A stretch of DNA of 64,000 nucleotides. Origin: Rhizophagus irregularis (taxonomy: Eukaryota). The notes under the pieces are model-generated. The model had not been told where the DNA came from and ran no database searches. It saw only the letters and a program-made list of their open reading frames with translations. The DNA lies in NCBI RefSeq assembly GCF_026210795.1, contig NC_089430.1:4092001-4156000 (forward strand), written 5' to 3'. Each line of letters starts with the position of its first letter. Position 1 is the stretch's first letter. Positions 2,425 to 47,267 of this stretch are shown here, piece after piece. The translations under genes and the position numbers were made by a program.

Positions 2425-3763
2425 AGGCCCCAGAAAATGATTATATATGTAAAGTACCAAGATGCTTAATCAACATAGAAAAATTTTATGATGTAAGAAT
2501 TTTATAATGCTTAATTTTGAGAAAATTTTATACTATATAAGATAATTAAATTGCATATTTTTGGTATTATTTTAAAATACTAAAAGTTTTTACTAATTGT
2601 TTATTTTTCATATTTATAGAACTTTTTAAAATATTATATATTGAATTTATAATTAATTTTTATTTTATTTTTACTAACAGTGAGTGTTAATTTTATACTA
2701 TATTTTACAATTTTATATAAATGTATAAACAAAAATTTTTTTATGAAATTTCAGTTTTTTTTTTCAATGTTTTATTAATTATCTTTCAATAGTATTTTTT
2801 TAATTTTTATTAAACTCAGTATATTATTTTTAATATAAAATTACTATATTATATATATTTATTTGTTAAATAAAATTACTGTAAATATATTTTACTTTAA
2901 AATATAATTTCACTATTCACCACTTTGGTTATATCAAATTATCTTTTATGTTTAAGTAAGGTTGTTCAGCAAGTTAAATTTACTTGTATTTTAATTTTCA
3001 TAAGGCTAAGTATAATATTTATATAGAAAAGCATATTTTTTATAACAGTAATAACTTTTAAATTTTTCACTTTTTTATTTACAACTTTAAAGTGTAATTA
3101 CATCACTTTGGTCAAATGAAATCGACTTTCTAAATTAATTAAAAGTTTTTCAGCAAGGTCGAAACTACTTATACATTAATTTTCATAAATGTGAGTATAA
3201 TACTTATGGAGAAAAGTGCATTTTTCATAATAGTACTAACTTCTGAATTTTTCATTTCTCTGTTTACAAATTCAGAGTGTAATTACATCCTTTTAGTCAA
3301 ATGAAATTGACTTTCTAAATTAATTGAAAATTGTTCAGCAAGGTCGAAACTACCTACATATTAATTTTTATAGATGTAAGTATAATACTTATGGAGAAAT
3401 TTACATTTATTGTAATAGTATTAATTAAAATTTTTTTTTTACTATTTATTAACTTTATTAATTGAATATTGTTAATCTACTTGTATATTATGTTTAGTTT
3501 AGCTTCACAATGTATTGATCATATTTAAAATTAGATTTAATAAAATATATTTAATTAATAAATATATTTTATAAATTATATGTGTTATAATAAAAATTTA
3601 ATTAGGTTAGAAGATTAATAATTTGCTTATTTTTATATAATTTTTAAGGTTAGATTACTTAGATATTAACAATGCTTAGCAATTATAGTAAAAACCTATG
3701 CTTATAGCTACTAATAAAAAATATTTTTAGGACCTTACCTATATAAGTATTTTCTGGAATCCT
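2425..3763. mobile_element. Non-autonomous TIR element (AGG-C/A-CCC family), ~1.3 kb, copy without nested insertions
   Basis: Degenerate TIRs AGGCCCCAGAAAATGATTATATATGTAAAGTACC / GGACCTTACCTATATAAGTATTTTCTGGAATCCT; colinear with copy at 15237-23588 after removing its insertions; no clear TSD. Confidence 0.85.
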
Positions 3764-4689
3764 AAAAAAGCGAAATAAAAAGATCTTTCTCTTAGTAGAC
3801 AATGTACAGTTCATACTATTAGTAATTGGAGTTATTGATAAATATTACAATCCATTATTTGCCTCCCAATATTACAGTGCATCTGCAACCTGCTAATGCT
3901 GACATTATTAATTCATTCAAAGTTTGTATATTATTTATTATAAATTAGATTATAAAATTAATAGCACATATTCTAATAATTTATTAATCTTAGGTATAAT
4001 ATCGTAAAAGACTTATAAAAGATAGAATTAAGGCTTATGATAATGAATGGAGTTAAATATACTAGTTCCTAAATTGAAGATAAGTGACTCTATTTTACTT
4101 TGTACAAAAGCTTGAAAAGCTGTAACAAGTGAAACTATTTATAATTATTTGTCCAAAACTGGAATTTTGCCAATTTCGCCTTCACCCTCACCTTTACCTT
4201 CACTTTTACCTTCATCTTCTGATGAAGAACAAAATGATGATGGCCTAAATGAAATAGAAGAGATCCAAATTGTATCAATATAGTAATTTTATTTCTGGTG
4301 GATTAATAAGTGCTAAGAAATTTATCTTAATTGATAATGATAATAATTATGGGGGAGAAGAAATTACAGATGAAGAAATTGTAAATACAGTCAAACTTTG
4401 ATATAGCGAACTCTTGATATAGTGAATTTTTCAGACAACTATAATAAATTTCCTCTTGCTATAACAAATTAACCAATCAAATCTCTTAAAATTTTCACTA
4501 TAGCACTATCACAGGTCGAACAGATGTCATTGTCGCAAAATTTGCCTGGAATTTTTCTGGCAAATTGAGAATTATCCCGGTAAATTGAGGTAAATTGTGT
4601 TACAATTTTGGGATAATGGAGGTCTTACAATTTGGCAAATTTTGTCAAAATGGCGACAATCCTACACAATTCCTAATTCAAATGTTGAG

Positions 4690-5270
4690 AAATTTTTCAG
4701 AAATTTTAGTCAAATTTTTAGTAATTTTATGCAAACGTAATGAAAATTGTGGTGAATTTAGTTAAATTTTTAGTAATGTTATGTAAACGAAGTGCAAATT
4801 GTGGTGAATTTAATCAAATTTTTAGTAATGTTATGTAAATGAAGTGCAAATTGTGGTGAATTTAGTTAAATTTTTAGTAATGTTATGCAAACGTAATGCA
4901 AATTGTGGTAAATTATAGTGAATTTTTAGTAATTTTATGCAAAAGTAATGCAAATTGTGGTAAATTGTAGTGTATTTTTAGTAATGTTATATAAATTGTT
5001 GAAAATTTAGGTGAATTTTTCAGCAATGTTGTGCAAATGTAATACAAATTGTGGTAAATTTTGCATTTTTTCGGTAAATGTTAGCTAAACTTTTGATAAT
5101 TTAGTGAAATTTAGGATAATTTCGGACAATTGAGTGAAAATGTTTTACTGATTTTGGACAATTGAGTGTAAACGGTATAAATGCAACATTTTCAGAGACA
5201 ATTTAGTGAAATTTTGGACAATTGAGTGAAATTTAGTAATAATTTTAAACAATTTAGTGTAAACTCCACG
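4690..5270. repeat. Left subterminal tandem repeat (~53 bp unit)
   Basis: Recurring AAATTTTTAGTAATGTTATG…AAATTGTGGTGAATTT. Confidence 0.85.
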
Positions 5271-5434
5271 ACAATTTAAAACACTGTTTTAATAATTTCA
5301 CATAATTTATTATAATTTTATTTATTAATAAATGTACAATTATTATTATTTAACGATAATCTATGGATAATCTGCACCTCTAATTCATTCATGTATCAAA
5401 TGTTCAGTGCCAAAGTAGAAGCCGGTAAGTAAAC

Positions 5435-7420
5435 CAAAAAAAAGAAAAAAATGAAGCGTTAATAAACGTTTCGTTGAAAAAAAATCAAAATAAAGAAACA
5501 TTTCGAAGTATATACCTTCGAAATGTTAAATTCCATACGTCCAAGGACCGTTGAACCTAAAAAATAAAAAAAATGAAACGTTAATATACGTTTCGTTAAA
5601 AAAAATCAAATAAAAAAAATATTTCAAAGTATACCTTCGAAATATTGAATTCGGTTTGTCCAATGAGCCGCCAAACCTAAAAAATATAAAAAAAACGAAA
5701 CATTAATATACGTTTCGTTGAAAAAAATCAAAATAAAAAACAAACATTTCGAAGTATACCTTCGAAATATTCCTTTCGTTTTCACTGTTCCCTTTCGTTT
5801 CCCCCATTCGTTTTCACCTTTCCCGTTCATTTTCACCTTCCCCTTTCGTTTTTCCTTTTCCCTTTTCGTTTTTTCCTTTTATTTTCGTTTCCTCTTCCCC
5901 TTGTGTTTACTCTTTCCTTTTCGTTTTACCCTTTTCCCCTTTCGTTTCATCCATTCCTTTACGTTTTACCCTTTCCTTTTCATTTTATCCTTTCCCTTAA
6001 AGTAAAATAGAAAAAGAAACAAAAATTTAATAAATTAGATAAACAAAAAAAACGAAAAATTCCCCTAATTCCCTTTCCTTATTACCTTTCACCAAAGTCC
6101 GGGTCGTAATTTCATCCGGCATTCCTACAAGAAGGAAGAAAAGAAACGTCAGTTAACGTTTCTTAAAAAAAATAATTAATTATTAAGTTTCGCAACACAA
6201 TATTGCGAAACTCACCGGTTCGTTTCGAACTCCATCATCAAACGTCCGGCGTTCCTACAAAAAGTAAAAGAAACGTATGTTAGTATCGTTTCTTTAAAAA
6301 AAAAAATAATAATTAAAAAAATAAGATTCGCAATATTGCGAAACTCACCGGTTCGTTTCGATTTCCATTATCCAAACGTCCGGAACCTACAAAAAGAAAA
6401 AAAGAAACGTTAGTTAACATTTCTTACAATAAAAAAATAAAAAATTAAGTTTCGCAATGTAACATTACGCAAACTTACCGGTCGTTTCCATCATCCTAAC
6501 GTCCGGAACCTACAAAAAGTAAAATAAAGAAACGTTAGTTAACGTTTCTTATAATAAAAAAATAAAAAAAAAATTAAGTTTCGCAATGTAACATTGCGAA
6601 ACTTACCGGTCGTTTCCATCATCCTAACGTCTGGAACCTACAAAAAGTAAAATAAAGAAACGTTAGTTAACGTTTCATTTAATAAAAAAAAATAAAAATA
6701 AAGTTTCGCAACACAATGTTGCGAAACTCACCGGTTCGTTTCGAACTCATTATCCAAACGTCCGGCGTTCCTACAAAAGAAAAAAAGAAACGTTAGAAAC
6801 GTTTCCTAAAAAAAAATAAAAAAAAATTTAATTTTTTAAAAAAAGGGTTCGAAGAATTTCGCAACTTACCCTTTAGTTTCCTCATTTCCCAAACTCAAAC
6901 ACCGCAAATCCTACAAAAAAAAGGAAACATCAGTAATGTTTCCTAAAAAAAAAGAATTTAGAAAAAGTTTTGAGGCGAACGCCTCGAAACTTACCATTTC
7001 GTTTTTCCAAGTTGAATACGCCGGAAAGACCTATAAAAAAAAATAAAGGATTGTTAAAAATGTTCCTTATAAAAAAAAAAAAATTTTTTTTAGTTTTTTT
7101 TTTTAGTTTTCGAAACGAAAAGCTACCTTTCAGTTCTTCGTTTCCCGAAATCAAACACCGGAAGCCTACACAAAAAAAACAAAAAAAGGAAGCGTTGAGA
7201 AACGTTTCCTAAAAGGAATTAAAAAAATTAAAAAAAGTTTCGAAGCGAAACGCTTTGAAACTTACCCATTTCCTGGCTTTCTAAAGACGAATACCGAAAG
7301 ACCTAAAAAAAGAAAGTGTAGAAAGCGTTAGAAACGCTTCTAAAAAAAAAAAAAATTATTAAAAGTTTCGAAGCGAAACGCTTGAAACTTACTATTTCAT
7401 TGGAAGATTCTGACGCTGAT
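5435..7420 (-). ncRNA. Putative multi-exon non-coding transcript: 13-14 introns of 78-100 nt with micro-exons
   Basis: Introns at 7392-7303, 7265-7166, 7126-7031, 6994-6911, 6869-6771, 6731-6638, 6606-6510, 6478-6387, 6348-6255, 6215-6125, 6085-5996, 5759-5677, 5634-5557 (plus 5515-~5435 with mutated AG); GT donors (mostly GTRAGT or GTATAC), CTRAY-like branch sites, polypyrimidine tract and TAG (one AAG); no continuous spliced ORF found; expression not shown. Confidence 0.65.
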
Positions 7421-8099
7421 TACATAATTAATATGGTTATTGTTAATAATAGTAGGAAGGGAAAGGGGAAGGGGAGAGAAAGAGAGAAGGGGAAAGGGCG
7501 AAGGAGAATGGGAGGGAAGGTGAAGGTGAAGGTGAAAGAAAGAGGGAAGGGGAAGGTGAGAGAGAAAGGAAGGTAAAGGGCGAAAGAAAGGAGAAATAAA
7601 GGCATGAGAAAAAAAAATTAAGCTTTTTGCTAAAAAAAGCTTAATTTTTTTTCGTTATACCGCAGTTGAAGCTGCGGTAATTATTAAGTAATATCGCGTG
7701 ACGCACGTGATATATAATTTTATATAAATAGGGGCATTTTCCCCGAAAAATTTTTTTTTTATTATAATTTTTTTGATAGATGTATATATATACTTATATA
7801 TATACATATATATATATCTATCTAATAACTTTACGAAAAGCCCCTCCTCTGTAAACAGGTAGAGGCCATAAAGTACCTATAGGGGGAGAGCCGTTGCTGC
7901 TCCCTCCGCCTGTTTATAGTGACAAAAGAGGGAGTCTTCAGTAGTAAGGTTTCGTATAAATTAAACAACACATCGTGTTGATACATTGTTAAAATTAACA
8001 ATGTGAATTTAATGTTAAATAATGCGTTAGAATATAAATATTATAAATTTAATAATGTCCGTAATTTTACAAATAAATAAAAATTATCCTAACAATTTT

Positions 8100-9110
8100 A
8101 ATGTAATTAAGTGTAATGCTACATTATCCTGTGTAATTGTAGTATTTTTTTTGTGTTTTTTAGTGCAATTCCGCGTTTTTAGTGCAATTCTGCGTTTTTA
8201 GTGCAATTCTGCGTTTTTTAGTGCAATTCCACATTTTTTAGTGCAATTCCGCATTTTTTAGTGCAATTCCGCGTTTTTTAATGCAATTCCGCATTTTCTA
8301 GCATAATGTTACATAACACGAAATTTTCTAAAAATATGATAATTGTGGTACTTTTTAGTGTAATGCTACATTGTCTAGTGTAATTGTGGTATTTTTTAGT
8401 GCAATGCTGCATAATTTAGTATAGTGCTACATTTTTTAGTATAATTTAATGTAATGTGGAATTTTCCAAAAAATGTGATAATTGTGATGCTTTTTAGTGT
8501 AATTTGGTGAAATGCTACATTTTCCAGTGTAATGCCATATTATTGAGCATTTTCAAAAAAAAAATGTAACATTTTAACATTCTGACGAAAGTGAAACATT
8601 TGACCAAAAAAACATAAAATTTGCTAAAAATATGCAACATTTGACAAAAAATATAGAATTTTCATAAAAAAATGCACCATTTGCTAGGAAATCGGAATAT
8701 TTGACAAAATTTGATTTTAATTGACAATGTTATAACAATTTTATGAAATGTTGTTACAATGATATCACATTGGAGATAAAATGTGGCATTTTCATAAAAA
8801 TGCACCATTTGCAAGAAAATTGGAACATTTGACAAAAAAAAAGCAAAATTTGATTTTAATTAACAATGTTATAACAATTTTATTAAATGTTATTACATTT
8901 GAGGTAAAATGTGAAATTTTCATAAAAATGCACCATTTGCAAGAAAATTGGAACATTTGGCAAAAAAAAAGCAAAATTTGATTTTAATGACAATGTTATA
9001 ACAATGTTACGAAATGTTACAAAAATGTTACATTTGAGATATAATGTAGCATTTTCCCAAAATTTCATAAGATTTGCTAAATCGGACAATGTTGTAACAA
9101 TGCTATTCCA
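8100..9110. repeat. Right subterminal tandem repeats
   Basis: ~20 bp units TTTTAGTGCAATTCCGCG (8155-8300) and ~130 bp units containing AAAATGCACCATTTGC. Confidence 0.8.
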
Positions 9111-9722
9111 AAAAATTGCTCAGCGTAATGCAGCATTTTCCACAATTTCCCACAATTTTCCAGGAAAATGGGGAATTTGCATTTTTTGAATTTTGGACAA
9201 TGGCGCCCCTTCGACCTGTGCTAGGGTTCGTTATAACAAGAATTGACTGTATAGTAAAACCAAATGAAACAGATCTTAAAGAAAAAGAATTAATTCTACA
9301 ACCCAAAATATCCACTTCAGAAACATTAACATCTATTATTAAACAAAATATTATCTTTTCTTGATAATCCATCTGATACTTTTTTTATGAAGTTCAATAA
9401 CAGAAATATATTATATAATAATCTTAAAAATAAATTATTTGTTTCAATAAAAATAGTAAAGTTCAATTGGTATTAAAAACATATGATGGATCGTATGTAA
9501 CTTAATATTATAATAATTGATAATATAATTTTTTTTTTTGAACATTTATTAGTAATATAATATAAACATTTATATTTTATTAGTAATATAATTTTTTGAA
9601 CATTTTTATATCAATGTATTTTTTTTTTATATAATAAAGTTCAAAAATCTTTATATCATAAATATTATATAAAAAATCATATGATTTTTGATATATTAAA
9701 CTTTTTATTGTTTACTTATAGA

Positions 9723-10224
9723 TAAAGCTTCTAATAGTTCAGGCTAAACTAAAGAACCAATCTGAAACTGGCTAAAAAAATCTTTCAGATCCAAAATTCA
9801 GTTCAGTTCGGTTCAGGTATTAGAACTGAAAAACTGGCAGTTTGATTCAGTTTAATCCCATTTTTTACAAAAATGTGAAAAATCAAATAGCTGTCTATCT
9901 AGTGATCATATAAAGTTGAACCATATATCATTGGATTCCTCTTAACGAGATGCGTCAAATGGTGGTAAGATCACATCTTTAGCATTGATAGATCACAAGT
10001 TAATCTATGCTAAATGATTTATAAATAATTGAAAATATCAAGCTATCTATTGGCGCTAGAGATAGGATCTTAGCACCATTTGATGCATCTCAGTGAGGCG
10101 AATCCAATGAATATTAATTCGTTCATATACGATTACTAGATGGCAAATAATATCAAGTTTCACATTTTTTTAAAATTTTTGAGCGTTGAAAATTAAAAAT
10201 TCTGATATATGAATTTATTTCATC
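9723..10224. mobile_element. Truncated copy (one arm) of hAT-type foldback element
   Basis: Starts TAAAGCTTCTAATAGTTCAGG, matching the TIR of 23973-25084; colinear with ~24030-24435. Confidence 0.75.
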
Positions 10225-10732
10225 AGGAAATTTTGGGGGTGTTATTTTACTAATAAATATGTCGGTTAACACTAAACAGTTGTTCAATATATTGTTCAAT
10301 GCTGTATACTGTAATGATCGACATAAAGTGTTGTTATATGCAATATAATTAATATAATTACACACATTTTTTATGTTATTTAATACGAGCGTAATTCAAT
10401 ATAATATATTGTGTAATTTAATGCTATCGTTCAATACAAACAACACTAAATGTTGTTTTACTAAAATTTAATATAAAAATACACTAGTTTTTATACCCAT
10501 TTTCTAACAGTTTACGCATTTTTCATTACAAATTTAGGTTTAATGCTATCATTTAACACAAACAATACCAAATGTTGTTTTACCAAAATTTAGTATAGAA
10601 ATACACTACCATTTTTTAACACTATTTATTATCACTAGATATAGTTTAATATATTACAGTATTGCTATACTAAATTAACATATATAAATACAGTATGTTA
10701 TTATATATACAGCTAGTATTTTATATAGATAC

Positions 10733-13700
10733 CTAAAATAAAAATACGTTGACAAAGTATTCATTTTGGCATTTTGTACGTTGAATTTTGATTCCACAGG
10801 TATAAAATTATATTCATTTATAAGTTTTAATAATGGACAATCGTACTTATACAAATGACGTTGATCATTATAACAAAAATCATACTATCTAACTAGCACA
10901 AGATCAAATGATGAATAATTTTTAATTACAATATTAACCAACATAAGTACCTAAAAAGAAATAAATAGTTAATTTATTTGGCTTAGATATTATATAATAT
11001 ATTCAATAATAAAACAAATAATACTTTTCCAAAACATGTTCCTTCATTGGTATTATAATCTTCAGCTTCTTCAACATTCATATTAATTGAAACATTACTA
11101 AATTCTGGTTCATTATAGTACTTGCTAACTGCTCGAACACAATCTCCACTAGCAGTCATATTTGTATAACTATACCAAGAAATAATTGTATTATTAATAA
11201 TCATCTCCTCGGTTAAATTATCATCTAAATCAAAAAACTCATTTAAAACTATGAGAAATTGGCTTAACGCTAACAAAGCATCAGAAGCAAGACTATTTTT
11301 TTCCTTATAACTATCAAAAAATTCGTCAAAATTTTCTAATGCAAATTTTCCCAATAACCCCTTTAACGATGTGAATTTTTGAGATTTTTTTTGTTTAGTT
11401 TGATGTATCAAGTATTTTAACGTTGTTTTGTGTTGAACCTATAAAATAATTAATTTTTAAATGACATCAAGAATGAATTTAAAAAATACTATACTAACTG
11501 TATTAATAATTTGTCCCATTAGTTCTCGTTTGTTACTTGATCTGTATGGATTTTTGACGTAATCTTTGTGCAAAAACTCGTATGTTTCTGTTGTATAACC
11601 ATTAATTGCACCAAACTCTTCAATTGAATTAATGATGTGATACACCCAATTGTGTAGTTTGGGCAATTTAAGTTCAGATCGGGAATAGTGTTGGAATAGT
11701 TTCACAAATGCTGTTATCCAATCTGTTATTAATTTCTATAATAAATAAAAATCAAATAGTTGAAACAAATGTTTAATTAAAATGATACTTTTTTTAAAAA
11801 ATTACTTTAAATTCTACCAGTTCCGAATTCGTAAAATATTCTTTTCGGCTAAATAAATACATTTTATTCTACCGATAATAAACATTAACCAATGCATTAT
11901 CTTGTTTTTTAGCGTTCTGTTCTTTGCTGTACTTTATTATTAACCCTTCAATTACGAAAAGAAATACTTTTATCATATTATAGTATTCATTTACCGTAAG
12001 GCGCTTAATATTTTCTAATCCATGTTTGAAAATTTTAAGCCCTAGAAATCTAGGAATAGTGGCTAAGCATTTGTCAAGTTCATCAACTGCCACTTGTCCA
12101 CATAGATTTTTCAACATTTCTTGTGTATAAATTACTTGATATTTATACAATCCTAGATCGAGATGATGCATCCTATCTGGGTATGTTGCTAAATATATAT
12201 CAAGTTGACTAAAGAATAATATATAAATAATATAAGGTGGCTAATTCAGTTTTTATTATTATTTAATTAATATATTGTATTAATTTTATCTGTTATAATA
12301 AAATTGACTTACGGATATTTCCAAAAAATATTATTCATGTCATATATCGAATATTGATAAGCGAGGCGTTGATTTACAATATTTTTCATGGTTGTTGGCG
12401 TTCTTAATTCTATTTCATCATTGCTTAATCTTAAATTATTCAAATCTTCTCTAGAAATTAAACATTTATGGTAAGGATATTTACTGTTAATCGAGTATGT
12501 TAACGTTTGTGTAGCATTTTCTGGAAGATCTTCCAACAAGGTAGATATATACGGAAAACACCATATGTCTCCATTATTTGTTTGTAAATCAATGCCCCTA
12601 TCTTTGTATGACAATAGCGGATGCATCATGACATCAAATGCTTTATGAAACAAAGTCTTTTTTGTTAGCAAAAATCTCCTTGATTTTTTTTCCGAAATTG
12701 TTTTTGCTTTTAATATTAGAAGATAACAAAGAAGAACTTTAGCGTCAGGTTTATTATGATGCCAGTTTGGTATATTACCTAAAGTCAAATACACTGGATG
12801 CTCAGATAATTTTCCTATTTGGTCACAAGTTGTAGCATCAGAATAAAGAATTATTGATAAAATATTTGCCGCGTTAAGAAGCGTATTTTGTGTCTTTTCT
12901 CACCATTTTCCATTGAATTGTTCACTATAAATTCTTTGGCCTCAATTGTATAATGGTGTAAATTTAAAGATACAATGTTCAAAAATATCATTATTACTCA
13001 GCAATTCTTTTATAGCATCAAAAATCTGTCGATAGTGAAGGTAGTATGTTTCATTATTATATTTCATTATAGGCACCTTTTTGAAAGAGGTATGTGATTT
13101 TGCTAATTGATCCAAAAACTTTCGGCCTTGTTTCACTGAAGTAGGTAAAACTACATCATCACGAGCAATACTTTTTGAAAATTTAAGTATTTCATTACTA
13201 CAAACATCTGATAGATCCCATTTAACAAGTAAGCTCATAAAATTTCCAAACTCCTTGGACAGAAAGTCTATTTTGTCACTCGTAGTAATATCAATATTTT
13301 GGCAACTGGCAGATATTCCACATCAATTAACTCAAATTCTACGTCCTCCTGTAGTAAACGGACAAAAAGCTTGTTAAAAGCTTATTTTATTGATTTTAAA
13401 TTGTGTTAACTTAATACCTGAATTTTTTCATCTTCATTATCTTCCATTTCTCTTTCATCAACATCATCGTCTTCTAGTACTTCATCTTCTTATACGTCAT
13501 CATCTACATCTTCTTTTATGTTCGTCACTTCCATGTTTATTTCTTTTCCTACATCTACTTCTACATACAGTCAACTCTTGTTATAATGAACCCTAGGTTC
13601 TAGACTTCAACTTCGCTATAAGGCTATAGTGAAGATTTTAAGAGATTTGATTGGTTAATTCGTTATAGCAAGAGGAAATTTGTTATAGTTGTCTAAAAAA

Positions 13701-14038
13701 TTCACTATATCAAGGGTTCGCCATATCAAGGTTTGACTGTACTCTCTTTCTATATATGTTTTCACATTTGTTTCTCTGTCTATATCTATTTCATTATTGT
13801 ACGCCATTTCTTCCTGTTACTCTTGTTGATTAAAACTTTCTTCTGCGTCTTTTAAACGGTACGTTTCACCATCATATTGCTCTTCATCATTATTTTCGTT
13901 TAAGATAATTGTATTATTTCTTTTATTTGCAATTTCTTGCAGATAGCTGTCTATTGTACTGCCGTGAATTTTTATATGATTTCTAAATGCCGTATGACAA
14001 GAAAAGTTTCTTGAACAATAAGAACACTTGAATATCAT
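10733..14038 (-). pseudogene. Plavaka-family transposase with N-terminal C2H2 zinc finger, multi-exon, decayed
   Basis: FKCSYCSRNFSCHTAFRNHIKIH; ILYSDATTCD…HPVYLTLGNIP; DRMHHLDLGL; KLHNWVYH…GYTTETYEFLHKDYVKNPYRSSNK; premature stops, frameshifts, MITE insertion. Confidence 0.85.
13568..13739. mobile_element. Tigger-like MITE, 172 bp, inserted in the Plavaka gene
   Basis: TA|CAGTCAACTCTTGTTATAATGAACCC … GGGTTCGCCATATCAAGGTTTGACTG|TA. Confidence 0.9.
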
Positions 14039-17320: not shown

Positions 17321-17604
17321 GTCAATAGTATCTTTTTAATTTTTATTAAACTCAGTGTATTATTTTTAATATAAAATTACTATATTATACATGTTTATTT
17401 TGTTAAATAATCTGAACGATATAAATGATCCTAACACGTGGACACAGTACAAACTCCAGGTCCCCATATATGCGTACATGGATGATACGATATTTCTAGA
17501 ATTGTCAAAGTATAGGATGCAAAAGATAGTGGATATAGCGAATGAGTTTTACTTGATTAATGACATTAATATCAACGCCAAAAAGTCAGAGCTGATAATT
17601 ATCA

Positions 17605-19397
17605 CATATGTGCCAATTTTTGGAATTAGTCTAAATTAAGATTTTTATAAAAATTTATATTTTAGTAAGATTAACATTACACAAATCTAAATTAAATATG
17701 TGTTACATATTTACGTAACTCAGATTTAATAAAAAATAAAAAAAATTTTTTTAATAAATATTTAAAAATAACGGTAATAACCACTTCTTTTTCCCCATCA
17801 CTCCCATCACTTTTCCATCATTTTTCTATTCACTTTTATTAAATATGACAAAAAAGTTTATAAGCAAATATAGCAGTTATTTTTAAGTGGTAAGTAAAAG
17901 AAAAAACTTAATATTTTATATACATAGATAAGACATATTTTTTTATAATTTTTAGCTTTAATTTATTGTTTTTTCTTTTGTAAAAAATACATGCAAATAA
18001 AAAATAATTATGATGTAAAATAGTTGTAAAATGAATAATAAGATATTTTTTTTTTTCAAAATAACTAATTATATATTTGTTTTTTATCTTTTAAAATTAT
18101 TTTATTAGATTTATTCTACTAAAATCCTTAAATGGCAAATAAAATCTTTTAAATAAAGTAAAAGAATTTGGGATTCTCTTATGAAAGCATTTTTTGGTAA
18201 GAAAAAAAATTTTCAGATCGGACTTTATGCAGGTGACAAAATCGTGCATTATTATTCCTGGAGATATGCTAACGTCATCATTTTACATTCATTTGAAAGC
18301 TGAGAATTTGCTCTATCGTAAGAATCAAAGATCAGGAAAATTGGATCACTGGATGAGGCGTAATTAATGATCAAAGTCAAATCAAATTTAAAAATTAAAA
18401 ATAAATATATTAGATGTAATTATTCACAATCCAGTGATTCAATTCATTCGATTTTAGGCTTATTAGATAGACCTCAATTTTCTCTTTCAAATGAATATAA
18501 TTTCATTTGTGTAGCTTGCATCTACAGGTATTTAATAAATTTTTTTATATCAGATTTTATCAAACTTATAAAATTTTATATTAATAATATAATTGATGAT
18601 TCCTAAACATCTACCGTATATCGCGGGCCATAGTACAACCCCTATGCATAGTACCCCCCTTGAAAAATTTCATAGAATTGTATAGTACCCGGGGGATATT
18701 TACAATTATCTCGTGATCTAGTGATCAGATTTGAGCCATCATTTTTTTGTTTGATAGCACTCATTGAGCTCTTCAAAATAAAAAAAAGATCGTTCAAATT
18801 GGACTGGTAGATCGTGAGATATTCGCAAAAAACAGAATTTTTAGGCTTTGTTTAGTACCCGGGGGTACAGGGTCAAACCCCGATTTTTGCAAGATACCCA
18901 GGGTACTGTGGCCCGCTATATACGGTACATATATTAAACGAATTATTTTAAATTTATTTTAAAGATAAAAGTTGGCATCACCTTAGGGAGCAAAGATCAT
19001 TCAAATTGAATCACTACATGTGAAGTAATTAATGATCAAATTTAGATAAAATTCAATAAATATACTGAACGTGATTACTGAACAACTAGTGATTCAATTC
19101 ACTTGATTTTAGATTCATTAGATAGATCTCGATTTTCTCTTTCAAATGAATGTAAATTTATTTGTATAGCTTATTTTTACGAAGAATTATCAATGATTTT
19201 GTCATGAGAGTTATATTTGATCTTTTAAATTTTAATGATATCTTATATTAAAAAAAAATTAAAAATTATATAATTAATTAGTTTTTTTTGCATTATCTAG
19301 TATAAATTTATTATTCTTATATAAATGATAATTTATATTTGCTTTAATAAAATTATTTTTATATAAAAAAATTAGATTCCAAGGATCGGCCCATATG
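17605..19397. mobile_element. Non-autonomous TIR element inserted in the LINE RT domain
   Basis: TIRs CATATGTGCCAATTTTTGGAAT vs rc CATATGGGCCGATCCTTGGAAT; RT KSELIII resumes NPTVEKQ after it; no clean TSD. Confidence 0.8.
18614..18925. mobile_element. pogo/Tc2-like MITE (CCGTA termini, TA TSD)
   Basis: TA|CCGTATATCGCGGGCCATAGTAC … GTACTGTGGCCCGCTATATACGG|TA. Confidence 0.9.
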
Positions 19398-22300
19398 AAT
19401 CCGACAGTGGAAAAGCAAGAACAAAACATAGAACTGGGTAGGGACCGTTCAATAGTTCAAGCTACGAATAATGAAATAAGATATCTCGGTGTTTGGTTTT
19501 CTAACAAACCAAGCAGATGACGATGGATGCAACGTCTGTTCACGATAGTCAATGAATTTTGTAATACAGTCCGAAGGAAATTTGTTCTAGCGGGCCAATG
19601 TATATATTTAATTAATAGAGTGTTGATATCCAGATTAATATATATAGCTCAAATCATGATATTGACAGAACATGATTGGAACTAAGTATTCGCCCCGATA
19701 ATGAAGTTAGTAAAAACTGGTTGAAACTACCTAAAAACACACCATCATCGTTATTATTTTATGAAGGGGGATTCGGTATGGACCATCCATGGAAACACTA
19801 TTGCATTAACAATATAATAGATCTAACGATTAGATTAAATAGTGATTCACACGCGGCAACATCAACACAAATCAGACTTAAAGACACGCAGCTTAAATCA
19901 CTCATTACTGATCCGATTTTTGACTGTGATCTTAATGTAATGCACTAGATAAAACCACAAACTCAGAAAAACATTTCATTTAACGCTTTGGTAATAACAA
20001 AAACTCTTGATATGTCAATGGCAGTAGATCCGATTGACAAATCAAATTGGAGCATTACAGGAGGGAAAGAGCCAATACTGAAATTTTTTAAACAGTTTTA
20101 GCTTACGAAATACATATATAGAATCAATCAAAGCGTACATTACCCAATATTTTACATTGATCAATTATTTATTAGGAGAACATATCTTATGACATGGAAA
20201 TAATACCATAGATTAGCATTACTTCTGGTACAAGGAAGAACAGCTAGATGGTACCGTGATGTGGCTCATTTATGCACATCCAGAATAGATAATCTAATAG
20301 TATCAAACGAACTGGAGATTACCAAAGTTAACCATTGGCCCTTTTTACAAGATATCATACCAGATGCACGCCGAAAACAAGCTATTTTTATACAGGAATC
20401 ATCAGCGGAATCAAATGTATGGACAATAGGTAAAGTTAATAAAATACGCCGCCATAAAAAAGGGATTTTAGTGAACTATCACCCAGGATACAATGATAAT
20501 GGAATCATTAAATGGCAGAACATGGGAAGATCTATTACGGCTGAATGTTGCAAGGTGGTGATATTAGATAAAGTCCCTAATAAACAGGGATGGAATTTCC
20601 CTTATGAATAGATAAATTCGAACCAATTAGACGCATCAATACCCAACAATAACCTACCATCATCAGCACTAGATCCCATAATCATCCTATCATCGGTTCA
20701 AGACATATGGATTCATAGGTGGATAGAAGATGACAAACTGAAATCGCGATTAATGGATATTAGAAATATACTGGCAGAGAGATCATTGGTAGATTACTAC
20801 ACAGATGGATCACTCACACCAAGCACTCCCACAACAATGGGTAAATAAAATCCCAACTTAGTGTATACAAATATGGGTGCGACATTTTGTGTCAATAATG
20901 AACCACACCTATCAGCCCAAGCAAATTTATCGCTATGGCCTTCATCCACAAGATCGGAATTGGTGGCAATTTTTATGGCACTACTCACAGCCCCAATGAA
21001 TGCAATAATCAATATCTACACAGATAGTCAAAATGCCATTTGCATGATCAATAATCATCATAATAAATCGGGCAGGAAATTATTGAAGCAGACAAATTCC
21101 TTAATCCTACTTAAAATTAACATTCTTTTACAAGAAAAAAAGATGGAACTGATATTAGAGAAAGTTAAGAGATATAGTGGAGATGCTATGAATGAAATGG
21201 CAGATGAATTAGCCAAGAGCACAGGCAATAGCAACCATTATTTCAACAACAGATTTAATTATAGTAATAGAACAGTTAGATTTTTCCCAATTTTCAAATA
21301 GATACCAATTGAATATAATTTAAGGAAGTTTATTAAGACCCTAATGAATCCGAGAGTGGAGCAGAATGGTCGATACTTAAAACAAATGAATATGAAACAC
21401 CAATTGACTGGAACATAACTTGGAATTTAATTCATAGATACAAAGGATTCAACTGTATTTCAGTTAAAAAGCATTGGCATCTAATATTTATTACTAAATT
21501 ATTTGCTAAACTTCTTCCTATAGGTACTATTCTACTCCAAAGAAAGCCAGATATATACAAGGATTTTGTTTGAGCAAGATGTAATGCTAACAAAGAAGAA
21601 AGCAGATATCATTTTATTGAATGTGATGCTAATAAGAAACTATGGCCTATAATTAAAAACAAAATGCAAAATGATTTAGTTCCTATAATTCAAAAATTAA
21701 ATGATTCGCCAGAGAACACATCCAAGATTATAAGTGAAAAATTAAATCAAATACTAGGATCACAACATGATAACAATAAGTTTACTGACTTCTACTTACT
21801 GGCTTTAGAAGCTAAGATTAACACTAATTTTTCCAAAATTTCAAAACAGACATTTGGATTATCAGAATCAAAAACATTTTACTTCTGGCCTCCCTCTTAG
21901 ACTCATTTATTATTCATTTTAAAGAATTAATTTGGCTACCAAAATGTAATGCTACTGTGGCATGGGAAAAGGCAAGAAATATTGGAAGAAAAGATAAACT
22001 AAATAGATCTGAAAATATGGATCGCTATTACAAATCCTCACATCAAAATTCTAAACATCTAAGACAGGATAAACAATACCTAAAAGAGAACAATTTAATA
22101 GATTCACAGGAAGATCAGATTGTAGTACTGGATGATATTCCAATTGAACAGAAGTCAGTGCAGTCAGAAACTTCATTAAATGAAAATCCCATTTTATCAA
22201 AGTTCCATAGGGTGGGGAAAAAAAGCACATGATCAAATGTGCTTGTTAATTAGTAACAATTGGTGGTACAGTTGGGCTTATAAGAAAACAAAAAAAATTA

Positions 22301-23879
22301 TTAACAATGTTGTGATAGACTTAGAAACAATATGACTAAGCCTATTGGGAATTTATTGTGAATTTATTTTGGGATTATTTAATCAATTTTAAAGCATATT
22401 CTAAATTGTATTATTTAATTTTTAATATTTAATCTTTTATTCCTATTTTATTTTATTTTATTTTATTTTGTACTTTTAAATTTAGTTTTCTATATTTGTA
22501 TATAATTTACTTTATATTTATTGTTATTTTACTTTTACTTTTATTTTTATTCTTTATTTTATTTTATTTTATTTTACTTATTTTGATAGCATTTTGATGA
22601 TCGCATCCTACTGGGTGGATATAGCTCATGATAATTTGTTTGTATGGTATATAAACTTAATATCAATAAAGCATATATAGATCATTAAAAAAAAAAAAAA
22701 AATATTTTGTTAAATAGTAAAATTACTATAAATATGTTTTACTTTAAATATAATTTCAATACTCACCACTTTGGTTATATCAAATTATCTTTTATGCTTA
22801 AGTAAGTTTGTTCAGCAAGTTAAATCTACTTGTATTTTAATTTTCATAAGGCTAAGTATGATATTTATATAGAAAAGCATATTTTTTTTAACGGTAATAA
22901 CTTTTAAATTTTTCACTTTTTCGTTTATAACTTCAGAGCGTAATTACACCACTTCAGTCAAATGAAATCGACTTTCTAAATTAATTGAAAGTTGTTCAGC
23001 AAGGTCGAAACTACTCATAAATTAATTTTCATGAGTGTGGGTATAATACTTATGGAGAAAAGTGCATTTTTCATAACGGTACTAACTTCCGAATTTTTCA
23101 TTTCTCCGTTTACAACTTCAGAGCGTAATTACACCTCTTTGGTCAAATGAAATCGACTTTCTAAATTAATTGAGAATTGTTCAGCAAGGTCGAAACTACC
23201 TACATATTAATTTTTATGGGTGTAAGTATAATACTTATGGAGAAATTTACATTTTTTGTAATAGTATTAATTTCGAATTTTTCTTTTACTGTTTATTAAC
23301 TTTATTAATTGAATATTGTTAATCTACTTGTATATTATGTTTAGTTTAGCTTCACAACATATTTAAAATTGGATTTAATAAAATATATTAATTAATAAAT
23401 ATATTTTATAAATTATATGTATTATAATAAAAATTTAATTAGGTTAGAAGATTGATTTGCTTATTTTTATATAATTTTTAAGGTTAGATATCAACAATGC
23501 TTAGCGATCATAGTAAAAACCTATGCTTAGAGCTACTAATAAAAAATATTTTCGGGACTTTACCTATATAAGTATTTTCCGGGGTCCTTTTACAGTCTTG
23601 TAAATTTTCAAAATATTTTAACCGTAATATTACATAGATTTACAGTCTTGTAAATTTGTAGAATATTTTGACCATAATATTGCGTAAATCTTACGATATT
23701 GAAAACTTGTGTAATATTTTAACCATAATATCACATAAATCTTACGAAATTGTAAATTTACGTAATATTTTGAAATTTTTCAAAATATTATGCCATAAAC
23801 TTTCATAAACTTACAAAATCATAAACTTATGCAATTTTTCATGCTATAAAATTTTCTGATAATTTTTTTATAAAAATAA

Positions 23880-25960
23880 AAATAAAATATTAGTTTTGTA
23901 ATGAAAATTTACGTTTTTAGTATTCAAAAAAAATAAATTTAAATGTTTTACCTTTAATATAGAAGTTCAGAATAAAGCTCCAAATGGACTAAATTATAGA
24001 CGATTTGGATTAGAACTGAAATTCATAAGAACTGAACTGAAAAACTGGCAGTTCAGTTTGATTTAATTCAATTTTTATAAAAATGCGAAAAATCAAATAG
24101 CTGTCCATCTAGTAATTGTACAAAGTCAAGCCATATATTATTAGATTCCTCTCAATGAGACGTGTTGAATGATAGTAAGATTATATCTTTAGCATTGATA
24201 GATTGCAAAATAACTTACACTAAATGATTTATAAAAAATTGGAATTAGCAAACTATATATCAATATTAAAGAGATATGATCTTAGTATCATCGACGTGTC
24301 TCAGTGATATGAATCTAATGAATATTAATTCGTCTGTGTACAATCACTGAATGGCGAATAATATCAAGTTTTACATTTTTTTAAAAATTTTGAGCGTTAA
24401 AAATTAAAATTCTGATATATAAATTTATTCATCATCCAGTAGTTATACAAATATGAATTAGGACTCATTAGATTCGTCTTGATAAGATGAGTTGAATAGT
24501 AGTGAGATTATGTCTCTAGCGTTGAGCATTAGTAAGCTATCTATCGATGCTAGAGATGTGATCTCACCACCATTCAATTTGTCTCATTGAAACGAATCTA
24601 ATGAGTCCTAATTTATATTTGTATGACAATTGAATGACAAATAAATTCATGTATCAGAATTTTAATTTTTAAATGCTCAAAAATTTTAAAAAAATGTGAA
24701 ACTTGACATTATTTGCCATTCAGTGATTGTACATGAATGAATTAATATTCATTGGATTTGTTTTACTAAGACACGTCAAATGGTGCTAAGATTATTATGT
24801 CTCTAACATTGATAAATAGCTTACTAATTCCAATTTTTTATAAATCATTTAGTGTAGGTTAACTTGTAAATTGTGATCTATTGATATTAGAGATATGATT
24901 TTACCATTATTTGATGCGTCTTATTAAGGGGAATCCAATGATATATAGTTTAATTTTGTATGATTACTAAATGGACGACTATTTGATTTTTCGCATTATT
25001 ATAAAGATCAGATTAAACTGAATTAGAGCCAGTTTCAGATCAGTTTTCTGATTTATCCTGATTCCTGAACCATTTGAAGCTTTAGTTCAGAACTTGTTTC
25101 AACTTTCTTTATCTAAAAAAAAGTAATATAAACATTAGTTAATATTTGTCAATAAAAATTAATAAAGAAAAAATTTTTTAAAGTTTTTACTTTTGAAGTA
25201 AAACCCAGAACTGTTTTCAGCAACTGAAACTTAAAAAATTAATAAAATAAACATTAATATTATTCATTAAATAAAAATTAAAATAAAAATTTGAAGGTTT
25301 TATCTTTAAAATAAAGTGTTCTGAATCTACAATTAAAAAAAAAATGAATTTTAGTTAACATTTATTAAATAAAAATAAAAAAAAAATTCACTTTTTTTTT
25401 AAGTATACTTTTAAAATTCTTTTATCCAAAAGTCAGAGAACTAAAACTCTACAAAAAAATAACTGAAATATTAGTAAATATTTTGTAAATTAAAAGTAAC
25501 AAAAAATATATAAAGAATTTTAAAGTTTTACCACTGTTTTACTTTCAAAATTTCATATAGGTTTTTATCTAGTAGCTATAAATCTAAAAAAATAAAATAA
25601 AATAAAATGTTAGTTAATATTTCATTTAAATAAAAAAAATGAAATAATTTTGAAATTTTACTTTTGAAATTTTATTCTGAAAAGTTTTCAGAAATCATGA
25701 ATCTATAAAAGAAAAAAATTGAAATGATGTTAATAAGAATATTTTATTAACAATAACAAAAAAAAATACAAGATAGTAAATACCTTTAAAATTTCATTTA
25801 GAAACCTATTTAGAAGGCCGTAAGTCTACAAAAAAGAAAAAATGAAAATGTTAGCAAACATTTTGTTTAAAAAGAAATAAAAAAATATTCAAAATTTACT
25901 TTTGAATTAGAATTTCAGTTAACTTTCTTTATTCAGAAGATTATTTGCAATCTAAAAAAT
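23880..25960 (-). other. Second, degenerate micro-exon/structured-intron array, interrupted by hAT foldback
   Basis: Recurring minus-strand GT(A)AA donors (23951, 25190, 25408, 25531, 25661, 25783, 25899), CTAA branch sites and TAG acceptors (25113, 25449, 25584, 25703, 25826, 25952). Confidence 0.55.
23973..25084. mobile_element. hAT-type foldback element
   Basis: TAAAGCTCCAAATGG … CCATTTGAAGCTTTA; perfect 8-bp TSD GTTCAGAA (23965-23972, 25085-25092); long internal inverted arms. Confidence 0.9.
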
Positions 25961-28131
25961 AAAAGAAAAAATGGTTATTAGTAATAGGAACCCTGACATT
26001 ATATATACAATTCAGAGAGTAACTTTTTAGCAAATTGGCCTAAATTTCAAAAAAAAATCACGTTTTTTGCGATTATTTTGGCATCTAGTAGTCCAATTTA
26101 TGCAAACTTTTTTTGTTTTGTAGCCTTATTGAATGTTTGAATCCTTTAGTAACTATTTGTAATAATAAAATAAATAAATAAACTAAGATTTGTACTTATG
26201 AATTTTAGTTCCTTAGCTTATTATCCTTCAATTAATGCAAGCATTTATAAATAGGGATGGTAAAGTTCTAGGTCCTAGACCTAAAAACCTAGTCCTAGGA
26301 TCTGGTCTGCAGATTTTTAAGTTCAAATTTTGGACTAGAAGCAGACCAGGTTCTAAAAAGTCCTAACTAATAAAGTATTATTATATATTAGATAAACATT
26401 AAATGTGTAGGTTATAAGAGATTTATATAAAATAATATTATGTTTAAATTATATATGTATAGTTTGCTGTAAATTGTAAATTTGATTTTAAGTAATAATA
26501 AATTATAAAAAATGCACTGCAATATTGCAATACAATTTTTATATTATTAAAATCATATTAAAAAATGAGTTGCAATATTGCGATTCACATTTTTATATTA
26601 AAATCATATAAAAAAGTGAATCGCGATACTGCAACTCACTTTTTTTATATAAAATCAATATAAAAAGTGAATCGCAATATCACAAATCACTTTTTTTATA
26701 TTTAGTTATCACTAAATTCATAAAATCTATAAATAACTTAGTCAGGATCAGGTCTTGGGACCAGAACACTTATTATGATTGCTCAATATAAAAAAAATTA
26801 ACATCCAAAATGATGAGAATGACCAGCCAAAAAAAAATATTTACCAATTCTATTGACGATTTTTCAGTTATACTTACATGTAATGTACAAGTTTTAATTA
26901 TAAATGATTAGAAAATACAATTAGAGGGTGAATAAAGAAGGTACCAGCTTTGAATTTTAAAATTAAACTGGTAAAAGTTTCTAGAAAGAGTATATTTTAT
27001 TTTTATTATATAAAAACACTTGTTAATATTTTTATTTGTTTTTTTTTTATAGGTATGGGGTTTATATTGAAATTAATCCAAGTAATAAAAATAAATTTTT
27101 TTGAATAATTTTTTTTTAAAAATAGTGCTTTAAAAAGTAGTGTGAGACAACTTAAAATAAAGAATAAATATATAATACATTATACTGTTAATAATAAAAC
27201 AAAGAATATTAACAAATCATATGAAAAGAATTTTATTGAACAAATGCTTATTTTTAATTTCAGCTAGAGTTACGAACTAGAAAACTAATTCTGGCTACTA
27301 TAATAAATATTATTTAACTGGTGAGATTTTTGCAAATCCTCTTCCCTTTTAGTAATTACATGATATGTATCACTTCCCTAAAGTTATTATAAAATAAAAA
27401 AAAAAAGTTCATTAAAACTGGACTACTGAATGCTAAGAAAATTGTATAACTTTAATTTTTATACTTTTTAAAAAATGGGCCAATTTGCTAAAAATATAAC
27501 TTATAATTTATTTTAGAGATTTCTAGAATTTTTACTTTATAACAAATGTTATAATAAGATGCAATATATATTGTATTAAGTTTATCTTATTTATTAATCA
27601 TTATTACATTTAATTTTAGACTAGTATTTTATTATATTATATGTATGAAAAAGTAATGTAATACTATAAGAGATAGTTACATCTGCAACTTTATTGGTTT
27701 GTCATATATATAATAGTTATAGTAGTTTAATGTTAGTGATTTTTGTTTATAAAAGTAACAAACAGAAGTCTTTATATAACTACTTAATATCATTCTCAAT
27801 TAGTTAACATTTTATAAAATCCTATCATTTAATAAAACCTGACTGTCTTGAAAAATTAACAAATCTTGTATCTCTACCTATAAGACATCAAATATAGGAT
27901 ATGTAATCTTACAATTATTTTCAGGTTTTATTATTAATTATGTAAATTACATGCATGATAAAAGATTTTAACTACCAATTCTTTTTACATTGTTAAAAAA
28001 ACTATTTATCACGTAACAAGTATTGAAAAAGTTGATAATTCGAAGATAATATAATTAAAAATATCAATTTAAAATTAAGAATCCTGAATATAGTAATAGG
28101 GGTTTCTAATTCAAGTAGAATTTAACCTTAG

Positions 28132-46094: not shown

Positions 46095-47267
46095 TTAAGT
46101 CCCGTTACTAAGGCCCCATTGGAAATCTTTCAATTCGACATTTTTAATAAAGTCATCAATTTTAACATCACCCTCTACATCTTTAATTAATTCATTATAA
46201 ATTTGCAAACCAGAATTAAATTCATCTTGATTACCCATGGCATGATAAACAATTTTATCAATACCAGCTAAATGAGCAGCCGCAATTTGTAAACAAGACA
46301 TAATAGTAATATTACCACCATAAGCACCACATCCCCAATTTCCTGTATGAATAATCACTCTCGGTTTTGGTACACTTTCTTCTTCGTTGATGTTTATTTT
46401 AGTATGTTCTTGATTCTCTTCATGATTTCTTTCAAGTATTCCTTTTTCTACCAAACTCTCAAATTTGGCAGCAAGAAATCCTGAATAGCCGGTAGCCAAT
46501 ATTCTTTTAATAGTATTAAAAGTATATTTTCCATGTCCATGTTTTGGTGCTTCAATAGCAATGATATTAGAATAATAAGGATTTCCTGTTTTTGGATCAA
46601 TTCTTTTATCATATATTGTTGTCGCTAATTTAATGGCTTCAGGTGATGCATGTGCAAATTGGTTTCCATATAATCCAAATGGTCGTTTTTCATTTTTATT
46701 AACATCAGTTTTTACTTGTACTTTTCTTTCTACTCCTCTAACTAATATTGGTGTTGATATAAACGATGATGAGATTGAATCTTTAGTGAGAATTGGACGT
46801 GCTGTTGTAAAACAACTCTCTTGATCTCCTTTTACAAGATAATCTCGAAGTGAACATAATACTGGATGTTCTAAACATTGACTTTCATCTTGCGCGAATA
46901 AATTTCCTCCATAATATCCAAATACATGTTTATCCGCAAAATTAATATACCAATTTACCGTGTTATTGTCTTCAGGTGACGAATAATCAAATACATCATT
47001 CTTAACTTCAATCTTCATTTCTTTTCCCCCTTGAGGATTATCACTTTCACCTTTAAAAGATTTCGGTAAAGGAAATTCTTCCCATCTTGTATATTCCAAT
47101 TTACCATGAAATGAATCTGCCCCTTCAGGGGTAGCCATTTCGTATATTAATTTCTTATTTTTACAATACCATTTTGGTGGATTTTGTTTTACCAATTCAT
47201 TTGCTATAAATGATTCATGATGAGTTAAATGATTTTTTATTACTTTTATTATTTGACGTAATTCCAT
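46095..47267 (-). CDS. PARG-like macrodomain hydrolase, intronless
   Basis: INFAD…YYGGNLFAQDE (QEE-signature variant) and TGNWGCGAYGG; start at ATG 47267 (MELRQ) assumed. Confidence 0.85.
   Translation of the reverse strand: MELRQIIKVIKNHLTHHESFIANELVKQNPPKWYCKNKKLIYEMATPEGADSFHGKLEYTRWEEFPLPKSFKGESDNPQGGKEMKIEVKNDVFDYSSPEDNNTVNWYINFADKHVFGYYGGNLFAQDESQCLEHPVLCSLRDYLVKGDQESCFTTARPILTKDSISSSFISTPILVRGVERKVQVKTDVNKNEKRPFGLYGNQFAHASPEAIKLATTIYDKRIDPKTGNPYYSNIIAIEAPKHGHGKYTFNTIKRILATGYSGFLAAKFESLVEKGILERNHEENQEHTKININEEESVPKPRVIIHTGNWGCGAYGGNITIMSCLQIAAAHLAGIDKIVYHAMGNQDEFNSGLQIYNELIKDVEGDVKIDDFIKNVELKDFQWGLSNGT

Follow-up and report, generated by a model that had tools for sequence, protein, structure and literature searches.

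What is being maintained when a transposon carries introns back to back, parted by exons that seem to encode nothing? The question arises from a 64,000-nucleotide stretch of a Rhizophagus irregularis contig (hereafter the window), in which a first-pass annotation had proposed a transposon-borne array of 13–14 introns. Parsing of donors and acceptors along the minus strand from 7392 to 5435 indeed yielded 14 intron units of 78–100 nt, 13 of them complete from GT to AG; the acceptor is AG in units 1–13 and TG in unit 14. The intervening exons measure, 5′ to 3′, 37, 39, 36, 41, 39, 31, 31, 38, 39, 39, 236, 42 and 41 nt, identical to the lengths first listed, and tandem amplification of the array is evident. 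The features of the array region are given here in the 5′ to 3′ order of the minus strand, units 1–10 with the analyses that identify them:

7835..7945, minus strand: GC-rich branched stem-loop upstream of the array, common to loci L025 and L027
7700..7821, minus strand: putative promoter zone, judged by its motifs: (AT)n at 7783-7821, TATA-like at 7730, CACGTG at 7710
7393..7605, minus strand: putative CT-rich first exon with a 61-codon low-complexity frame at 7605-7420, start putative
7303..7392, minus strand: unit 1, 90 nt; parsing, fold, profile match
7166..7265, minus strand: unit 2, 100 nt; parsing, fold, profile match
7031..7126, minus strand: unit 3, 96 nt, donor and hairpins degenerate; parsing, fold
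6911..6994, minus strand: unit 4, 84 nt; parsing, fold, profile match
6771..6869, minus strand: unit 5, 99 nt; parsing, fold, profile match
6638..6731, minus strand: unit 6, 94 nt; parsing, fold, profile match
6510..6606, minus strand: unit 7, 97 nt; parsing, fold, profile match
6387..6478, minus strand: unit 8, 92 nt; parsing, fold, profile match
6255..6348, minus strand: unit 9, 94 nt; parsing, fold, profile match
6125..6215, minus strand: unit 10, 91 nt; parsing, profile match
5996..6085, minus strand: unit 11, 90 nt, atypical, with an AAG acceptor and without the two-hairpin form
5760..5995, minus strand: purine-rich exon of 19-nt repeats, 236 nt
5677..5759, minus strand: unit 12, 83 nt, its donor placed in a hairpin loop, the hairpin crossing the exon border
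5557..5634, minus strand: unit 13, 78 nt, of the same type as unit 12
5435..5515, minus strand: unit 14, 81 nt, of the same type as unit 12, with TG instead of AG
5305..5326, minus strand: putative 3′ end signal, two AATAAA hexamers downstream of the array

In silico removal of the units left a longest ATG frame of 61 amino acids, contained entirely in the CT-rich first exon and lying upstream of every intron of the array. Pfam returned no match for six long frames within the transposon or for the 61-codon frame, and no counterpart of that frame turned up in the other loci when the upstream region was compared by DUST-filtered blastn. Rfam gave only sub-threshold matches over positions 4000-9500 of the window and, at the gathering score, no family in nine array loci; among Rfam families, no C/D or H/ACA snoRNA was found in the array introns. 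The stem-loop at 7835..7945 is 80% identical to its relatives in L025 and L027, with 4 of its 38 pairs changed on both sides. Pairing of the CT-rich first exon with the purine-rich exon into a long duplex was considered and rejected, its score of -118.3 lying among those of shuffles (-115.9 ± 7.2).

The array is carried by a transposon that is itself nested in another:

4386..13741: outer Plavaka element with 93% inverted arms; transposase fragments at 10983-13322 on the minus strand
4510..9220: DNA transposon of CACTA/EnSpm type, without genes and with CAC...GTG at its ends, carrying the array
4510..4520, plus strand: left terminal inverted repeat, identical over 11 bp and matching in part up to ~4535
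9210..9220, minus strand: right terminal inverted repeat, 11 bp
4705..5112: subterminal tandem repeats with a 52-bp period
8155..9016: subterminal tandem repeats with 20-bp and 128-bp periods

The 11-bp terminus matches the window exactly twice (0.19 expected), at 4510-4520 and 9210-9220, which bounds a 4.7-kb element and bears out that the array is transposon-borne. CAC..GTG termini are a signature of EnSpm/CACTA elements (PMC12730594), and a Pfam scan of long frames found no Transposase_21 gene in this copy. The element sits in the left terminal repeat, or arm, of the Plavaka element. CACTA/EnSpm (CMC) insertions duplicate 2–5 bp of target, 3 bp in EnSpm; here the flanks differ and show no such duplication, and since the insertion site lacks ~20 bp that the other Plavaka arm has, the duplication may have been lost to a flanking deletion. 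The carrier is an additional member of a known superfamily, and the novelty lies in its cargo. The window as a whole is AT-rich (GC 0.28), and a pyruvate dehydrogenase E1-beta exon within it is 96% identical to the Rhizophagus clarus protein and 91% to that of Glomus cerebriforme, which identifies the DNA as that of a Rhizophagus-type arbuscular mycorrhizal fungus.

By scanning metagenomes with the branch-hairpin motif of the units we recovered 32 loci, 30 of which are AT-rich and hold unit arrays with at least two profile matches each; they form 15 sequence clusters, and because several belong to assembly series related to one another, they count for fewer than 30 independent samples. The other two (L014 and L018) are unrelated, lack an array and were excluded from all unit counts. 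Scans of viral contigs returned 2, 1 and 0 stretches, the first two, at GC 0.41–0.43, being dropped as chance; the single stretch of the second scan, L003, was left out. Nearly all units of the 30 loci stand in tandem arrays. CAC-type ends like those in the window occur in L005, L009, L010, L011, L012 and L017. L009, L011 and L017 have a common right end with three different flanks, and L005 and L012 a common right end with two, which is evidence of mobility; L010 has a left end, and together with L005 spans an element of ~3.8 kb that is nearly all array, four of the six long frames of L010 having been scanned with no Pfam match. Gene-less elements with an array as their main content are seen in the window, in L010 plus L005, and in L009, L011 and L017. 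Arrays in L015, L023, L030 and L034 adjoin other end sequences, and a kinase adjoining L015 has its named best matches in Rhizophagus. Seven loci carry acceptor-only repeats, 12–31 per locus at ~45-nt spacing with 0–1 donors among them.

One locus, L019, resembles an autonomous relative. Its arrays adjoin two genes, one for a Transposase_21 and one of the Tet_JBP type in which an HxD motif is present; of these arrays, one on the minus strand has about five introns and another lies on the plus strand. The Tet_JBP match (E=4e-7) is below the Pfam curated cut-off, most homologs of the protein carry the domain, and its species-named homologs all come from glomeromycete fungi. The L019 array is related to those of the CAC-ended L010 and L011, and the L019 sequence stops short of the element ends. 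Among DNA contigs of a public run, 647 pieces fell on 1.7 kb of the window array, and depths of 155–232 for near-identical pieces against 27–41 for many others suggest several near-identical and many diverged copies, depth itself not being a copy number. At the blast setting used, no single window exon matched another locus over at least 28 nt; a global-alignment graph joined some window exons to other loci. Two motifs derived from reads matched 0 of 35 loci and a third matched L019 only. Such arrays may account for part of the unclassified repeats that make up 24% of the R. irregularis genome (PMC8647823).

We built a profile from 66 units found at other loci, leaving the window sequence out, and it recovered 12 of the 14 units described above at E<1e-3 (units 3 and 11 were missed), which makes the array more than a chance assembly of signals. 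Its remaining matches in the 64 kb were palindromic echoes inside the array and one unit (E=0.0013) of a second array:

25113..25952, minus strand: decayed array of seven units of 73–94 nt with exons of 23–52 nt, CpG nearly lost and GT/AG mostly kept

The matches were confined to these two arrays and included none in the host genes of the window. Of 15 junctions in the decayed array, 13 still have the splice-critical G but only 3 the G next to it (p=7e-4), two positions of near-identical context in units that are not fully independent.

To what the arrays conserve, units anchored on the branch-hairpin arms only (183, of which 120 were non-redundant and 104 of those T-tailed) gave a consistent answer. 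The first downstream AG was TAG in at least 97 of the 104, one unit per locus having been preselected for its acceptor by the scan pattern, and it lay 13–22 nt past the hairpin in 91; a GTRAGT donor stood at most 90 nt upstream in 75 units (5.8 expected), and 90 held a branch-type motif within the hairpin. Donor, branch, pyrimidine tract and AG thereby follow one another in the order and spacing of U2-type introns. The exons behave differently. Seventy of them range from 12 to 61 nt and divide 25/18/27 by frame, and their likeness between loci is barely above that of shuffles (0.49 against 0.44). In 71 comparisons of related modules, drawn from 94 modules, exon interiors differ at 283 of 2262 positions (12.5%), as against 1 change in 142 for AG (0.7%) and 3 in 142 for GT (2.1%), figures in which the consensus is favoured by anchors that tolerate 1–2 mismatches; within the same module anchor, 16 of the 94 modules depart from consensus at the +1 base and 2 at AG. 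A multiple of 3 was gained or lost in just 7 of 129 exon indels and in 1 of 37 net changes of exon length.

Because the exons drift with frame-breaking indels while GT and AG are kept, it is the splice signals, and not a protein, that are conserved. Both parts of the first-pass observation, homologous exons differing by non-multiples of 3 and splice signals holding steady, thus survive comparison across loci. A conserved, frame-preserving reading frame, which that annotation had set against its own view, was looked for and not found: 10 other arrays share none, and their longest ATG frame has 57 amino acids. As judged from sequence comparison, conservation covers GT, branch motif, pyrimidine tract and AG but does not extend to the reading frame, a pattern that recognition by the spliceosome would select and that excludes a coding role.

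Folding predictions set the units apart from ordinary introns of the same region. Of the 14 units, 12 are predicted to fold more stably than shuffles or to take a two-hairpin form (z -1.4 to -5.5), folds being weak in unit 3 (z -0.9) and unit 11 (z -0.6). Predicted hairpin 1 begins at the donor, units 12–14 holding the donor in a loop, and predicted hairpin 2 encloses the branch motif. Compared with 18 host introns, called by hand in four genes of the window, array introns are richer in pyrimidines along the tract (0.87 against 0.63); their donor costs more to open (6.7 against 3.0 kcal/mol, p=7e-6), as does their branch region (3.7 against 1.6, 13 introns on either side), and their branch A is more often paired (0.94 against 0.48). 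Array donors pair with U1 more strongly than host donors do, though not significantly so (-9.2 against -6.25, p=0.073). The inner arms of the donor hairpin pair with their partners within the same unit (2.05 against 0.97 pairs), a value reached in 0 of 5000 swaps. RNAalifold on 10 window introns recovered the branch hairpin only, with two-sided change in 4 of 10 pairs and a covariation term of +0.16; as the donor hairpin aligned poorly there, donor covariation rests on the within-unit arm swaps. The hairpins are 20–35 nt long and their inner sequences vary freely. Together, the models predict hairpins that bury both the donor and the branch site.

We looked for splicing in raw reads, poly(A) and other, filed under a species label of similar DNA, which numbered 775, 836, 405 and 105 on 5200-8100 and 481, 486 and 232 on 5990-7720. 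Most fit only in part and derive from diverged copies. No CT..AC joint was present among the 15 listed of 32 or the 15 listed of 23, and loose read ends cross exon–intron borders of relatives unspliced. Read depth rises and falls with that of the DNA contigs (Spearman 0.59 and 0.81) and is alike on both strands, so the reads may stem from genomic DNA or from RNA that is unspliced. Exons of 31–42 nt, together with reads from diverged paralogs, make the junction test weak in both directions: fully spliced reads of diverged 30–40-nt exons probably escape placement, and splicing in near-identical copies of the sampled material, if any, is rare. The proposal that splicing or the excised introns, rather than a protein, are maintained therefore stands as to the conserved signals and the missing protein; as to splicing itself, the listed joints include no spliced junction. 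To the first-pass annotation the analysis adds the predicted hairpins at donor and branch, the CpG enrichment, the acceptor-only repeats and the TET/JBP link.

What, then, would the conserved signals do? Four functions had been offered unranked, a small-RNA factory, a spliceosome decoy, protection from silencing and a stalled-splicing RNAi trigger; the evidence leans towards protection from silencing while settling on no single one. We give a probability of roughly 40% to the reading that the array acts in cis as a spliceosome-loading tag, shielding the element from RNAi and cytosine methylation. It would build on the observation that CAC...GTG elements carry arrays at several independent insertion sites, and on the comparison in which GT, branch motif, pyrimidine tract and AG appear conserved and the frame does not. 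Hairpins predicted to bury the donor and branch A would slow splicing while factors are still recruited, and the acceptor-only repeats of related elements would add factor-binding sites without completing splicing. Engagement of the spliceosome would make the transcript resemble host pre-mRNA and could keep the CpG-rich element unmethylated and mobile, possibly in cooperation with the TET/JBP dioxygenase of the autonomous relative. We know of no intron-sensing protection pathway in Glomeromycota.

A role in cis is favoured because gene-less copies keep the array. Protection is favoured because the intact array retains its CpG excess (observed/expected 2.35, against 0.88–0.89 elsewhere in the transposon and 0.15 in the decayed array) in a species whose 5mC content is very high, reported at 32.5-49.5% of cytosines (PMC8298701); because the autonomous relative carries a TET/JBP gene; and because introns can protect in human cells even when unspliced, counteracting HUSH repression with splicing not required (PMC8770142). 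Against the tag count the lack of a spliced junction among the listed joints, the read depth that tracks DNA, and the reported effect of stalled spliceosomes in Cryptococcus, where they set off silencing instead of averting it (PMC6232588). A further step, that shuffled hairpin-locked introns and acceptor-only repeats make up a dedicated splicing-decoy cassette and form, with the transposon TET dioxygenase, a two-part anti-silencing system of arbuscular mycorrhizal fungal transposons, is one we advance tentatively, the TET/JBP association being known from the single locus L019. Were the splicing-decoy reading true, it would describe a counter-defence that acts by splice-site recognition, without protein or guide RNA. 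An anti-silencing tag would mean that a transposon exploits intron-based discrimination of self from non-self, would link splicing to 5mC and RNAi control in the main plant-symbiotic fungi, and would provide a compact cassette to test for transgene protection.

The same CpG excess could instead mark a DNA-level array of CpG-rich motifs, bound by a transposon anti-silencing factor partnered with TET/JBP, in which the introns are a scaffold of amplification. TTCG occurs in 41 of 70 exons (13.9 expected), words of the TTCG/TCGA type being enriched even in exons; the hairpins are palindromes at the level of DNA; the 19-nt purine-rich repeat runs in opposite orientations in L011 and the window; a TET/JBP gene adjoins the L019 arrays; and the targets of VANC proteins are variable tandem repeats (PMC5735166). 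Such an array would leave unexplained why GT and AG are conserved over adjacent Gs, why GTAAG/GTGAG and branch-motif variants are tolerated, and why the branch-to-AG spacing is fixed and T richness confined to one strand. We consider it unlikely as the whole account, and it can coexist with the spliceosome tag.

Occlusion of the donor and branch relative to host introns, and the loose read ends that run unspliced over exon–intron borders of relatives, would also fit splice sites buried in order to stall spliceosomes, with the transcript fed to RNAi and family-wide siRNAs limiting the element or its competitors. Stalled spliceosomes are sensed in Cryptococcus (PMC6232588), and R. irregularis has 40 AGO-like genes (PMC11075540). 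Yet long-term methylation fits poorly with the large CpG excess of the intact array, the exons that would supply the guide sequence are unconserved, and a trans-acting product needs no retention by many gene-less copies; we regard this trigger as improbable. Conservation of intron sequence and structure over exons has raised a further idea, that the excised introns or hairpins are themselves the product, as stable intronic or short hairpin RNAs, or a sponge for U1/U2AF, and the ~45-nt acceptor-only repeats of seven loci, with 0–1 donors, do resemble factor-binding decoys. Hairpins of 20–35 nt are short for Dicer precursors, however, and their freely varying inner sequences, together with the Rfam results (no match at the gathering score in nine loci, nothing above threshold over positions 4000-9500 of the window), render this no less doubtful than the siRNA trigger. 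A neutral palindromic minisatellite grown out of a single ordinary exon–intron unit (palindromes can be maintained by template switching), a coding-gene relic or a 3′ UTR sending a 61-codon message to nonsense-mediated decay is largely disfavoured: it would accommodate the evident tandem amplification, the lack of spliced reads among listed joints and a 61-codon frame ahead of all introns, but not the 1–2% change of GT/AG against 12.5% in exons with free frame shifts, the absence of a conserved frame in 10 other arrays (longest 57 amino acids), or a 61-amino-acid frame that has neither a Pfam match nor a blastn counterpart in other loci.

Whichever function holds, how does the array compare with systems already described? 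Many introns, short disposable exons and no conserved frame also characterize snoRNA host genes such as GAS5/UHG, from which the array differs in being carried by a transposon and in having introns that match no snoRNA or other Rfam family. The stalled-spliceosome pathway of Cryptococcus, named SCANR, shares transposon introns. There, it is weak introns with poor splicing kinetics, lying within the coding genes of transposons, that set off silencing (reviewed in PMC6232588), whereas the window arrays place near-consensus signals in hairpins, in tandem and outside any coding sequence. Intron protection from HUSH (PMC8770142) is alike in that introns mark a transcript as self without completed splicing; it is a host rule of human cells, which here a transposon would exploit with a purpose-built array. 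VANDAL/VANC arrays of Arabidopsis (PMC5735166) are likewise fast-evolving non-coding tandem repeats of a DNA transposon, with a plausible tie to escape from methylation; the repeat described here is a whole exon–intron module with conserved splice signals and RNA-type hairpins. Introners and introner-like elements (PMC9860276, PMC12130899) are near-identical short spliceosomal introns linked to transposition that insert singly into host genes. The array units stand in tandem, each accompanied by an exon, and are carried within a larger element; their profile has no match in the host genes of the window, so we rejected membership; the main texts of both papers are silent on Rhizophagus, Glomer-, Mucoro- and 'tandem'.

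The closest kin are CACTA/EnSpm elements, including the TET/JBP-bearing fungal EnSpm elements of PMC12730594, with which the array carriers share CAC...GTG ends, subterminal repeats and, through L019, an autonomous relative with Transposase_21 and TET/JBP, the window copy being gene-less. TET-bearing elements are reported there from rusts, mushrooms and Pezizomycetes only, the main text having no mention of Glomero- or Rhizophagus, and an interior made of a non-coding intron array is not among the features we found described. Among papers on R. irregularis transposons and genomes, the accessible texts of PMC11075540 and PMC8298701 lack the word 'intron', that of PMC8647823 lacks both 'intron' and 'splic', and that of 10.1101/2022.10.19.511543 has 'intron' five times, never about such arrays. 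The first-pass statement that no system of this form had been described thus holds for the published literature searched, supplements and Repbase-type libraries being places where unannotated repeats of this kind may lie. Since the cargo matches none of the families compared, we regard the array as a new kind of transposon content: set beside introners, VANDAL repeats and the intron-sensing systems of human cells and Cryptococcus, a mobile family in which selection maintains dozens of introns while no protein is produced offers a natural experiment on the non-coding roles of introns.

A GC-rich branched stem-loop lies upstream of three arrays of hairpin intron units, one in the window and two at the metagenome loci L025 and L027. 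Its predicted fold has a z-score of -3.7, the three copies carry compensatory changes, and poly(A)-library reads from relatives of about 80% identity cover the window copy; comparison with Rfam gave no match.

Features of the window and of two metagenome loci
7835-7945, minus: GC-rich branched stem-loop, about 110 nt (also L025, L027)
5382, minus: TAGAGGTGC motif, directly after the window array
L030:184: TAGAGGTGC motif, before the array of this locus
26504-26702: four 51-bp repeats, about 550 bp upstream of the window's second, decayed array
2991-3435 and 22808-23287: 185-bp tandem repeat family, one copy at each position
17370-22232, plus: retroelement-like region, fragmented, carrying an RNase H domain (PF00075)
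46095-47480, minus: PARG catalytic domain (PF05028) encoded by one long frame (461 aa)
62008-62068: short TAACCC/TAATCC run, telomere-like and interstitial
L019:1758-7250: convergent EnSpm-type (Transposase_21) and TET/JBP dioxygenase genes

Each 51-bp repeat is a palindrome similar to the inner donor hairpin. The motif found beside both the window and L030 arrays is possibly a hAT-type end, a hint that elements of other superfamilies also carry arrays or have them as neighbours. At L020, two arrays built from one and the same unit stand face to face on opposite strands, and at L008, L016 and L025 an antisense coding-sequence fragment, possibly captured host DNA, is interleaved with degenerate arrays.

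Seven loci (L005, L006, L010, L011, L017, L019 and L034) contain long runs of an acceptor-only repeat of about 45 nt, consisting of a T tract, an AG and a short CpG-rich spacer; donors are nearly absent among these repeats, and the runs flank hairpin introns.

The TET/JBP dioxygenase of L019 has 113 homologs, and those assigned to a named species are without exception from Glomeromycota. Because a survey of TET transposons (PMC12730594), in its main text, makes no mention of a Glomeromycota lineage, the TET-bearing transposons of arbuscular mycorrhizal fungi may be previously unreported.
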